NCBI GenBank assembly: GCA_034432445.1
Contig: DAOUBX010000025.1
Location: 4,071-68,070, forward strand
Origin: Anaerolineales bacterium
Lineage (GTDB): Bacteria; Chloroflexota; Anaerolineae; JAAEKA01
DNA length: 64,000 bases
Direction: 5' to 3'
Shown here: positions 24,233 to 27,454 of the stretch, piece by piece
Numbering within the stretch: position 1 is the stretch's first letter
How the letters are laid out: each line of letters starts with the position of its first letter
The notes under the pieces: model-generated
Seen by the model: the letters and a program-made list of their open reading frames with translations, nothing else
Told to the model about the DNA's origin: nothing
Database searches by the model: none
Made by a program: the position numbers and the translations under genes

Positions 24233-27200
24233 ATGCAACGAGCTATGGTCTATGTCGCCGACACTGACCCCCTCGGCCAGCAGCGTGTGGCCGATCAGGT
24301 TGTCCGGGTGCTGGCCACCTACCCCAGCGCCCTGTGCGTGGAGGCGGAAGCTGAGCAGCTGCAAGCCCTGGAGGAACAGGGTTTTGTGGTGGACATTATC
24401 GAAGACGCCACCAAGATCAAGCTGCGATCGGTGCATTTCGACACCAGAGAAGAGGCTCCTTCCCAGACGGCTGTCAGCCGCAAGGTGTTGGCCAAGGAAG
24501 TGGCCGATCGCCAAGATGCCTGGATCGTCCAGTTCGTCGGGCCGATCAAGCCTGAGTGGAGCAATGAAATCGAAGCGCTCGGCGGCCACCTGAACGACTA
24601 CATTCCCAACAACGCCTTCTTGGTGCAGATGACGACGCGGGTCAGCCGGCAGGTGCAACAGCTGCCGTTTGTGAACTGGGTCGGTCCCTATCGTCCGGAT
24701 TACAAGCTCAGCCCGCTGCTGACCGGCAGCACTGAGCCGGCGACTCCAGACACCATCGGCGCCCGCACGGTCGATGCCGAGGCTTTCAGGCCCGACCCAC
24801 GCGGTAATCTCACCGTAGTTGCCTACAGCGAGGCTGACCTGGACGCCATTGCAGAACGCGTGCGAGAGTTGGAAGGAACCGTGGTCACCACCAGCCAGGC
24901 CACCTTACGCGTCTCAATGGACGTGGGCCGCGTCGAAACCCTGGCGCGCTTGCCGGAGGTCAAGTGGATCGAGCCCTACCTGCCGCCGCAGCTGCACAAC
25001 AACGTTGCCGGTGGACTGATCGGCGTGCGGCCGGTGTGGGAAAGCCATGGTCTGGACGGCGAGGGGCAGATCGTGGCTATTGCCGACACCGGCTTGGACA
25101 CAGGCGTGGACGACGACACCATGAGCCCGGAGTTCCGCGGCCGTATCGCCAGCCTGCACAGTTGGCCAATCCAGCCCGGCTACCGCTCGGCGCTCAACAA
25201 CACCTCCTGGGACGACGGCGCGGTCGACCGCGACAGCGGCCACGGCACGCACGTTGCCGGGTCAGTGCTGGGAAACGGCGCCCTCTCCGATGGATCCATC
25301 CGCGGCATGGCGCCCCGCGCCCATTTGGTGTTCCAGGCCGTGGAGCAGTGGGTAGATTGGAAGCGCAGCAGCGGTTACCAGGACGGTTACTATCTTCTCG
25401 GCTTGCCCGACGACCTGAGCGAGCTCTTCGGCCAGGCTTACGCCGACGGCGCCCGCATCCACAGCAACAGTTGGGGCGATAGCTTGCATGGGCAATACAC
25501 GACCGAAACGCAGACGATCGACCAGTTCCTGTGGGAACACAAGGACATGATCATCCTGTTCTCTGCCGGCAATGACGGCGTCGACGCCAACCGCGATGGT
25601 GTGGTGGAACCCGATTCGCTGGCCTCGCAGGCTTGTGCCAAGAACTGCATCGCCGTCGGCGCCTCCGAAAGCCAGCGCGACACGGGTGGCTTCAACCCCG
25701 GCGGCATCTGCAGCACCCATGGCGGCTGTTGGCAAATGAGCTTTCCGGTCGCGCCGCTGCGCCACGATCGGCTGAGCGACAACCCGGAAGGCATGGTCGC
25801 CTTCAGCAGCCGCGGTCCGGCCGACGATGGTCGCATCAAGCCAGACGTGGTGGCCCCCGGCACCAACATCCTCTCGGTGCGTTCCAGCCAGACCCGTGAC
25901 ACCGGCTGGGGGCTGCTGCCGGCCGATGTCCCCTATCGCTAGCACTACATGTTCATGGGCGGCACCAGCATGGCTACGCCGCTGGCAGCCGGCGCCGTGG
26001 CCCTGATCCGACAATACTTGCAGCAAGTGCACCTACATCAGCCAACGGGTGCGCTGCTCAAGGCGGTGCTTGTACATGGGGCGACGCCGCTGGCCGGCCA
26101 ATACAACCCGCCTGAAGTACAGCCGCCGCCGGATATCAACCAGGGCTGGGGACGCGTCAACGTGGAGAATGCGCTCTTTCCCCCATTTCCTGCCCATTGG
26201 ACATTTCGCGACGATCCGGCGGACGCCGTGGGCACCGGCGAGATGCGCACCTATCAGTTCGAGGTGGCAGATGCCGCTGTTCCCCTGCGCGTTACCCTGG
26301 TGTGGACCGATTTCCCCAGCAGCCCCAGCTCGGGCGGCGGCCTGGTCAACCGTCTGCGCGTGTCTGTGGTCGCGCCCGATGGCTCTATCACCCAGGGTGG
26401 GCCGCTCAACAACAACGTGCAACAGGCGCTCATTGCTGCGCCGCAGCCGGGCATCTACACAGTGCGCGTGATCGGCCTGAACGTGGTTTCGCAGGTCACC
26501 GCCAACGCCAAGCAGGATTTTGCCCTGGTGGTAAGCGGAGGTCTGGCGTTCGTCGATGTCTACGTGCGGGACGATGAAGCCGACAACGGCGTCGAGCCGC
26601 GCAGCGAGGCGCGCTTCCGCTCGCCCGATATCTGGATCAGCTCGGTCGACAACCCCACCGCGCCAGCCAGCGCGAACCCAGAGCCCGGCAAGCGCAACTA
26701 CGTCTTCGTGCGCGTGCACAACCGCGGCACCAGCCCTGCCGGCGATGCTGAGGTGCGCCTGTTCTGGAGCAGGCTGACCACGCACCCCGCCCGCCGCCTG
26801 TGGAGCGCCAAAGGCATCCAGGTCGACGGCGGCGCAGGCAATGTGCAGCGCGTGAGCCTCCCTGCCGCCAGCGATATGGCGCCAGACCAAACGGCGATCG
26901 TTTCTTTCACGTGGACGCCTCCCGCCCTGGCCAGCGCCAAGCCCAACTACTATTGCCTGCTGGCCACCGTCAGCCACCCGGCCGATCCACTGCTACAAGA
27001 TGATGTGACGGCGGCGCGGTGGGAGGACAATCTTGCATGGCGCGCCGTTGCCGTGCAAGAGACTGCGCCAGGCGAGGAAGCCAGCTTCCCGTTCTACATC
27101 ACGGGCGCAGACGGCGGCGCAGCGCAAGCGACCCTGCGCATCGACTGCCAAGCCTTCCCGGCCGGCAGCCGCGTCCGGCTCAAGCTGCCCAGCCGTTTGC

Positions 27201-27454
27201 TGCAAGGTGCGACCGCTGTGAATCTGCAACAAGTCTGGCAGTCGCCGGCCGGCACGCTTAGCCGGCTAGAGGTGACCAGCCGGGGCATCGCCGAGCTAGC
27301 CGGAGTGGCTCTCAAAAAGGGCGAGAACACCTTGCTGCGCCTGGAGGCGCTGCTGCCAGCAGCAGCCACGGCCCAGGACTACCCTGTGATCGTCGAACAG
27401 CGCATAGCCGGCCAAATAGCTGGTCGTATCAACCTTGTTGTGCGGGCGGCCTAG
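24233..27454 (+). pseudogene. Large subtilisin-like S8 serine peptidase interrupted by a single in-frame TAG (25940-25942)
   Basis: Asp (VAIADTGLD) and His (HGTHVAGSV) boxes lie before the TAG. The Ser box GTSMATP lies just after it in the same frame (...DVPYR*HYMFMGGTSMATP...). The C-terminal part has PPC-like and CARDB-like domains. Start ATG 24233 with an AAGGAG SD. No signal peptide. Confidence 0.7.

Follow-up and report, generated by a model that had tools for sequence, protein, structure and literature searches.

A gene for a peptidase of the S8 (subtilisin) family occupies positions 24233-27454 on the forward strand of a 64,000-nt stretch of contig DAOUBX010000025.1 from the Anaerolineales bacterium assembly GCA_034432445.1 (this whole stretch is hereafter the window), and the gene is interrupted by an in-frame TAG codon. 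Translation of 24233-27454 gave one frame of 1073 codons before the terminal TAG, in which the only internal stop is the TAG at 25940-25942, nine codons ahead of the codon for the catalytic Ser (AGC, 25967-25969). The DNA at the site reads CCC TAT CGC TAG CAC TAC ATG TTC ATG GGC GGC ACC AGC ATG GCT ACG CCG, and the residues around the stop are ...LLPADVPYR-TAG-HYMFMGGTSMATPLAAGAVALIR. The listing of open reading frames (ORFs) shows two ORFs here in the same frame, 24203/24233..25942 and 25949..27454. An earlier note on this DNA, made from the letters and the ORF list, had claimed that a single in-frame TAG splits an S8 gene between the His and Ser boxes, seven codons before the GTSMATP motif. 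Translation and the matches to the Pfam profile PF00082 confirmed the position of the break, and the raw sequence confirmed the distance, with the motif starting at the 7th codon past the TAG.

Both pieces of the frame matched the Peptidase_S8 profile (PF00082) above its gathering score of 21.8 bits. The upstream piece aligned over residues 276-551 to profile positions 1-222 of 288 (E 1e-31), and the downstream piece aligned over residues 2-51 to positions 233-277 (E 6e-8). Because the two matches are collinear, the TAG lies inside one S8 domain and does not reflect the chance neighbouring of two ORFs. Furthermore, over 100 homologues of ~1070-1150 aa that have no interruption can be aligned through the TAG junction, and D285 (in DTG), H337 (HGTH), N447 (AGN) and S579 (GTSMA) are invariant columns in a 36-sequence family alignment. 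There is no uninterrupted ORF with all of the catalytic residues: the TAG parts Asp, His and Asn from Ser, and the locus is thus a disrupted member of the S8 family and a candidate pseudogene.

A search with the fused protein sequence recovered more than 3,800 relatives, dozens of which are full-length (1066-1160 aa), collinear and uninterrupted. In 60 aligned homologues, the column of the stop is occupied by P (31 sequences), D (15), N (8), A (3), Q (2) or G (1), and its flanks are strongly conserved (WGLLP...YMFMGGTSMATP). Sense codons (AAC, AAT, GAC, GAT, CCG or CTA) were found at the site in 12 further genome loci of the protease family. Besides the close relatives described below, approximately 70 family members that were checked have a sense residue (P/D/N/A/Q/G/L) there. 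A stop at this site was seen in none of the homologues examined, i.e., the 60 aligned sequences, the 12 genome loci and the positional orthologues described below; the stop is lineage-specific.

One member of the 90%-identity cluster of the upstream fragment is an intact protein of 1074 aa (P0122), 88% identical to the window protein, which reads ...PADAPYRQHYMLMGGTSMATP... at the site. On its contig (L021, run SRR23854659), the protease gene stands in the same context as in the window, between alaS and a convergent gene, and the codon is CAA. In two further intact syntenic orthologues with alaS upstream of the protease, L022 (73% identical) and L023 (68% identical), the codons are AAT and GCG, respectively. 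A non-syntenic 79% homologue, L006, reads TAT CGG CAG CAC TAC ATG TTT ATG GGC GGC, with flanks nearly the same as those in the window. Two scans of metagenome contigs for the stop junction matched nothing; this negative is uninformative, since the contig behind L006 ought to have been matched by the second scan and is evidently absent from that collection. The comparison with orthologues that the earlier note had proposed therefore yielded a sense codon in each case. Because the two closest relatives, L021 and L006, both have Gln, the ancestral codon was most likely a Gln codon, and the TAG is one step from it, since one C-to-T transition turns CAG into TAG. The codons of the positional orthologues, together with the CAG of L006, rule out that the gene is split, or the stop read through in a programmed manner, as a conserved trait. 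Both options had been left standing by the earlier note, and as conserved features both are contradicted by uninterrupted orthologues with sense codons.

The downstream 501-aa product was looked up exactly, and nine contigs were found to carry it. The five places listed come from runs SRR32105347, 349, 351, 367 and 373, each with its own per-run Logan assembly, and all five are 100% identical to the window over 3.7-7.5 kb. The TAG, along with the same pair of 569-aa and 501-aa genes, is present in four of these five assemblies; the remaining one (L003) begins downstream of the site. At NCBI, the 569-aa and 501-aa fragments are deposited as separate proteins of a 70,954-nt contig. The stop is real, and a one-off assembly or consensus error is very unlikely to be its source; the sequencing error that the earlier note had considered is countered by these copies. 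Because all of the copies are identical, the runs sample one clonal population.

The remainder of the gene is undecayed. By the Nei-Gojobori method, the synonymous divergence (dS) between the window gene and L021 is 0.53 and the non-synonymous divergence (dN) is 0.068, for a dN/dS of 0.13; for the part ahead of the stop the ratio is 0.087, and for the part behind it, where the non-catalytic domains lie, 0.17. When changes were assigned to lineages by parsimony with outgroups, 120 synonymous and 55 non-synonymous changes fell on the window lineage, and 114 and 88, respectively, on the intact L021 lineage. The gene has 2416 non-synonymous and 800 synonymous sites, so that neutral drift would give ~3 non-synonymous changes per synonymous change. 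Relative to the intact L021 lineage, non-synonymous changes were not in excess on the window lineage, and the 24233-27454 frame has neither a further stop nor a frameshift. The small number of non-synonymous changes and the lack of a second lesion suggest that purifying selection acted along nearly the whole branch and that the TAG is recent; any period in which the window copy was free of constraint would make up no more than a few percent of the branch. Thus, the relaxed selection and additional lesions expected of a pseudogene were not observed, which is compatible with a pseudogene only if the event was very recent. Two options follow, a very recent mutation or a gene that is still under selection despite the stop, and the first appears far more likely because nothing points to recoding.

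Lesions were also observed elsewhere in the family, at two of 13 genome loci. The copy at L017:10001-13237, from a Chloroflexia metagenome-assembled genome (MAG), is interrupted by a TAA at residue 90 and changes frame near residues 226 and 406. The copy at L015:51-3223, from a Desulfobulbaceae MAG, changes frame near residues 203-225. Each of the two may be another pseudogene or the product of an assembly error; genuine lesions would be consistent with a dispensable gene that is occasionally lost.

Among solved structures, the closest are those of the oxidatively stable alkaline subtilases KP-43 (1WMD, phmmer E 4e-76) and SubHal (5FAX). The catalytic and C-terminal beta-barrel domains of the window protein align with the whole 434-residue 1WMD chain in two collinear stretches (phmmer match to 1WMD residues 1-193 and 196-421), and both proteins share the D-H-N-S residues and the GGTSMATP motif. 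In this alignment, the column of the stop falls in a loop (KP-43 ...NHDSKYAYMGGTSMATP) that immediately precedes the strand running into the Ser helix. An AlphaFold model was made of a 73%-identical homologue (P0001) rather than of the window protein itself, with a mean predicted local distance difference test score (pLDDT) of 83 and a predicted TM score (pTM) of 0.87, and its top Foldseek match was again 1WMD (E 1e-36, target TM 0.83, 36% identity). The model predicts three N-terminal beta-alpha-beta-beta-alpha-beta units (~4-72, 97-154 and 195-250), which look I9-like, a catalytic domain in which some 80 residues (~451-530) form an insertion modelled at low confidence, a strand at 574-577 followed by the Ser-bearing helix at 580-600, and several beta-sandwich domains.

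The window protein differs from KP-43 in being ~2.5 times longer and, in this strain, in having its gene interrupted by a stop. Its predicted architecture also differs in the three N-terminal units, the insertion of ~80 residues and, at the C-terminus, two or three additional beta-sandwich domains. KP-43 is an enzyme that Bacillus secretes. In contrast, inspection by eye revealed no N-terminal hydrophobic signal segment in the window protein or in the family consensus, and the window protein has no obvious signal peptide. The architecture given in the earlier note (no signal peptide, two N-terminal propeptide-like domains and C-terminal PPC/CARDB-like domains) was roughly right and is incidental to the stop, except that the model of the homologue has three N-terminal units instead of two, the CARDB match on the downstream piece is marginal (21.8 bits versus a cutoff of 22.7), and the PPC match is faint and was obtained on a homologue. 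NCBIfam gave sub-threshold similarities to various S8 subfamilies. A KP-43-like protease family of ~1100 aa that apparently lacks a signal peptide is mildly interesting irrespective of the stop. A scan of genome contigs for the family gave a best match of 55% identity, and copies that are 49-55% identical are spread across Anaerolineales, Chloroflexia, Methanothrix, Methanoregula, ANME-2, Desulfobulbaceae, Leptolyngbya and Chlorobiaceae MAGs (loci L007-L020). This scattered distribution suggests horizontal transfer among organisms of anaerobic sediments or digesters.

Our results favor, with a probability of roughly 0.85, a real, lineage-specific and recent CAG-to-TAG nonsense mutation in the gene of a KP-43-like S8 peptidase, i.e., a young pseudogene or null allele. 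Of the options in the earlier note, a fresh nonsense mutation or pseudogene is the one that the evidence selects. In the mechanism that we propose, a chromosomal KP-43-like subtilase gene of a Caldilineales-like member of the Anaerolineae (Chloroflexota) would have undergone a single C-to-T transition that converted the Gln codon CAG to TAG at 25940-25942. Translation would then halt after residue 569, and the product would retain Asp, His and the oxyanion Asn while lacking the strand and the central helix on which the catalytic Ser sits, as well as all of the C-terminal domains. Because it would be without the central helix and the nucleophile, the 569-aa fragment should be inactive. The result would be a null allele, either fixed or dominant among the cells sampled, or else a young pseudogene. 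We infer that function is lost and that neither readthrough nor reinitiation occurs to a meaningful extent. The locus resembles single-nonsense bacterial pseudogenes in having one premature stop in an otherwise intact frame, intact syntenic orthologues, a codon one step away and no further decay. Nothing material sets it apart from typical young nonsense pseudogenes; the one unusual point is that, wherever a run contains the strain, the window allele is what was assembled as the consensus.

Three points weigh against this interpretation. Both the catalytic residues and the entire frame past the stop are preserved without flaw, as would also be expected for a tolerated stop that is read through. 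The recovered copies are all clonal, and the age and frequency of the allele are not measurable from assemblies. Finally, the searches for tRNAs and pyl genes described below span the 64-kb window of the genome, and pyrrolysine (Pyl) systems do occur in some Chloroflexi.

The possibility that the true genome has CAG and that the TAG is a sequencing or assembly error carried into the deposited contig draws on the single base that separates the TAG from the ancestral codon and on the origin of all copies in one run series (SRR321053xx), for which a shared cause is conceivable. We consider it very improbable, since each run was assembled alone and independently of the NCBI contig, the five listed places match base for base, four of these five assemblies include the TAG, and a substitution is an untypical assembly error. 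If the stop is real, it might nevertheless be tolerated, either because it is decoded by near-cognate or suppressor readthrough to Gln or because reinitiation at 25949 gives complementing fragments. The strain would then keep a functional KP-43-like subtilase, down-tuned or in two pieces, which would explain the flawless 1.5 kb past the stop; we regard this as unlikely. The first form of this idea is leaky, non-programmed readthrough, in which near-cognate tRNAs would rarely misread the TAG and some full-length, possibly wild-type (Gln), protease would be made, so that the allele would be hypomorphic rather than null. In E. coli, near-cognate tRNA-Gln is a typical natural misreader of UAG, and a C after the stop makes for comparatively weak termination. 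The ancestral residue Gln, a variable loop that tolerates P/D/N/A/Q/G and a fully intact downstream frame are consistent with such leakage. However, a very young pseudogene is equally expected to keep the downstream frame intact, the stop is not conserved in any relative, and its context is ordinary, as TAG-C is also found at three normal gene ends in the window, among them the terminal stop of the protease gene itself. No stimulatory RNA structure was detected at the site either, since the fold of the 121 nt surrounding the stop does not surpass those of shuffled sequences (z = -0.28). Thus, the conservation among orthologues and the distinctive context or RNA structure that mark programmed readthrough are lacking, nothing points to leaky readthrough, and we judge the latter to be quite unlikely.

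A functional split enzyme, in which termination at the TAG and reinitiation at ATG 25949, 7 nt on, would yield 569-aa and 501-aa fragments that assemble into an active protease, appears highly improbable. The ATG does lie two codons past the stop, gene callers give the 501-aa product, and the break falls in the loop before the strand leading to the Ser helix, outside of secondary-structure elements in both the 1WMD alignment and the model of the 73% homologue. However, the Met encoded at 25949 corresponds to a normal internal position of intact homologues, within their conserved YMFMGG motif, and no Shine-Dalgarno-like purine run is present in the 30 nt before this ATG (CCGGCCGATGTCCCCTATCGCTAGCACTAC). 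In addition, the N-terminal fragment would lack the buried central helix, as judged from the known subtilisin fold. A natural split gene is not indicated, given that no relative is split at the site and that the downstream part has no Shine-Dalgarno-like motif of its own. The least probable explanation, in our estimation, is an expansion of the genetic code, with the TAG read as Pyl or by a dedicated suppressor tRNA. In the Pyl-encoding genes mtmB, mtbB and mttB, the TAG is conserved among orthologues and a pyl cluster is usually nearby; unlike these, the window TAG is unique to one strain and sits at a variable position, with no pyl gene in the window. The likeness to these genes consists of the in-frame TAG, the long conserved ORF and an anaerobe-associated phylum in which Pyl has been reported. 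Pyl machinery (pylSc/pylSn) was described in some Chloroflexi (PMC5424206), so that the phylum alone gives no ground to dismiss Pyl. Frequent TAG stops do not by themselves exclude it, because Pyl-using bacteria keep TAG as a frequent stop. Against this explanation, ARAGORN found two tRNAs only, tRNA-Val(CAC) and tRNA-Leu(GAG), and thus no tRNA-CUA or suppressor tRNA in the 64-kb window, and Pfam scans of ~40 larger window ORFs identified no pylS/B/C/D and no methylamine methyltransferase. Moreover, judging by the same-frame ORF pairs that were checked, no other conserved gene of the window has an in-frame TAG, and the variable loop offers no precedent for Lys or Pyl in any homologue, including those of Pyl-using Methanosarcinales. 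A strain-specific TAG in a variable loop does not look like a Pyl codon.

The use of TAG elsewhere in the window was also examined. In a crude set of 43 gene calls (long ORFs with high G+C at third codon positions), the stops were TGA in 20, TAG in 13 and TAA in 10. A global reassignment of TAG is ruled out, because TAG closes these 13 genes, including those for EF-G, enolase, ADP-forming acetyl-CoA synthetase and YceG. The earlier note had dismissed such a reassignment, correctly, on the grounds that TAG is a genuine stop at 2719 and 3748; this was upheld, and EF-G (3748-5823) finishes at the natural end of its profile. All same-frame ORF pairs in the window that are parted by one stop were then listed. 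In the TAG-separated pairs of real genes that were checked (YceG and a periplasmic-binding protein; the phosphodiesterase and Wzy; an ORF without a Pfam match and an HD-domain protein), the Pfam contents are unrelated and the members are simply distinct adjacent genes, not readthrough pairs. For the pair at 61884, the upstream ORF has no Pfam match, which makes the scan uninformative.

The finding has little significance beyond annotation, where the 569-aa and 501-aa ORFs are to be annotated as one disrupted S8 peptidase gene, and neither as a pair of proteins nor as a case of recoding. The locus does illustrate cleanly a nonsense allele of very young age, for which the ancestral codon, the mutational step and an intact sister orthologue are all identifiable, and within the SRR321053xx sample series the TAG allele could be used to mark the strain.

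The surroundings of the protease gene are housekeeping in nature (alaS, ruvX, yceG/mltG, murJ and tRNA-Val), and Pfam and PADLOC gave no sign of a mobile element or defence island around it. A role in a defence system was considered and rejected, as PADLOC gave generic subtilase/IetS-type S8 similarity only and nothing for the neighbours. The alaS gene is divergent from the protease gene and served as the synteny anchor, through the N-termini of alanyl-tRNA synthetase (AlaRS) encoded upstream of the protease in L021-L023; similarity of AlaRS places the organism in the class Anaerolineae of the Chloroflexota, with a Caldilineales MAG as the closest named relative (79%). The convergent 260-aa gene is 72% identical over 263 columns to a 263-aa neighbour of the protease in L021 that has the same placement, and a functional link between this gene and the protease is possible. 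The features are listed with their coordinates in the table.

Table. Parts of the interrupted protease gene, its two neighbours and the window genes that end in TAG.
Feature	Position	Strand	Basis or remark
S8 peptidase gene, 5' part, 569 codons	24233..25939	+	translation, PF00082, alignment
N-terminal propeptide-like units (5' part)		+	
Catalytic Asp285 (5' part)	25085-25087	+	alignment
Catalytic His337 (5' part)	25241-25243	+	alignment
Oxyanion Asn447 (5' part)	25571-25573	+	alignment
Nonsense codon TAG, in variable loop	25940..25942	+	sequence; orthologue codons
S8 peptidase gene, 3' part, 503 codons and terminal TAG	25943..27454	+	PF00082; ORF callers start at ATG 25949
Catalytic Ser579 (3' part)	25967-25969	+	PF00082, 1WMD alignment
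KP-43-like beta-barrel domain and further beta-sandwich domains (3' part)		+	PF00082, 1WMD alignment
alaS (alanyl-tRNA synthetase)	21219..23942	-	Pfam tRNA-synt_2c, tRNA_SAD, DHHA1; database copy 907 aa, 100% identical
Convergent 260-aa gene, overlaps protease stop by 4 nt	27451..28233	-	gene calls; weak CarboxypepD_reg-like Pfam match
EF-G	3748-5823		TAG at end of Pfam profile
YceG/MltG	17375-18769		TAG at end of Pfam profile
ADP-forming acetyl-CoA synthetase	36583-38976		TAG at end of Pfam profile
Enolase	40127-41455		TAG at end of Pfam profile
Phosphodiesterase	56049-57719		TAG at end of Pfam profile

Two of the mechanically derived ORFs near the protease gene differ from the independent gene models. 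The ORF at 21219-24167 on the reverse strand over-extends alaS, with 982 aa as compared to the 907 aa of the database AlaRS, which starts near 23942, and the ORF at 28270-29301 on the forward strand overlaps tRNA-Val (28282-28358), whereas independent gene calls start at 28468. Between ruvX and alaS, a 573-aa ORF (19494-21215, reverse strand) encodes a Baseplate_J-like domain (E 1e-8); it is surrounded by housekeeping genes, and no other phage or contractile-system genes are found nearby. A 735-aa ORF at 12574-14781 on the forward strand has no Pfam match and lies in a region of strong negative AT skew (-0.24). It encodes a polytopic membrane protein, and this accounts for the abundance of T in the coding strand. 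Finally, a long same-strand glycan/exopolysaccharide cluster extends over 43048-57719 on the reverse strand. It includes two Bac_transf sugar transferases, GT4 glycosyltransferases, two epimerases/dehydratases, a GHMP kinase and an NTP_transf_5 protein, as well as a Wzy-like ligase, a sulfatase and a phosphodiesterase, and an aspartate decarboxylase gene is embedded in it at 48145-48522.

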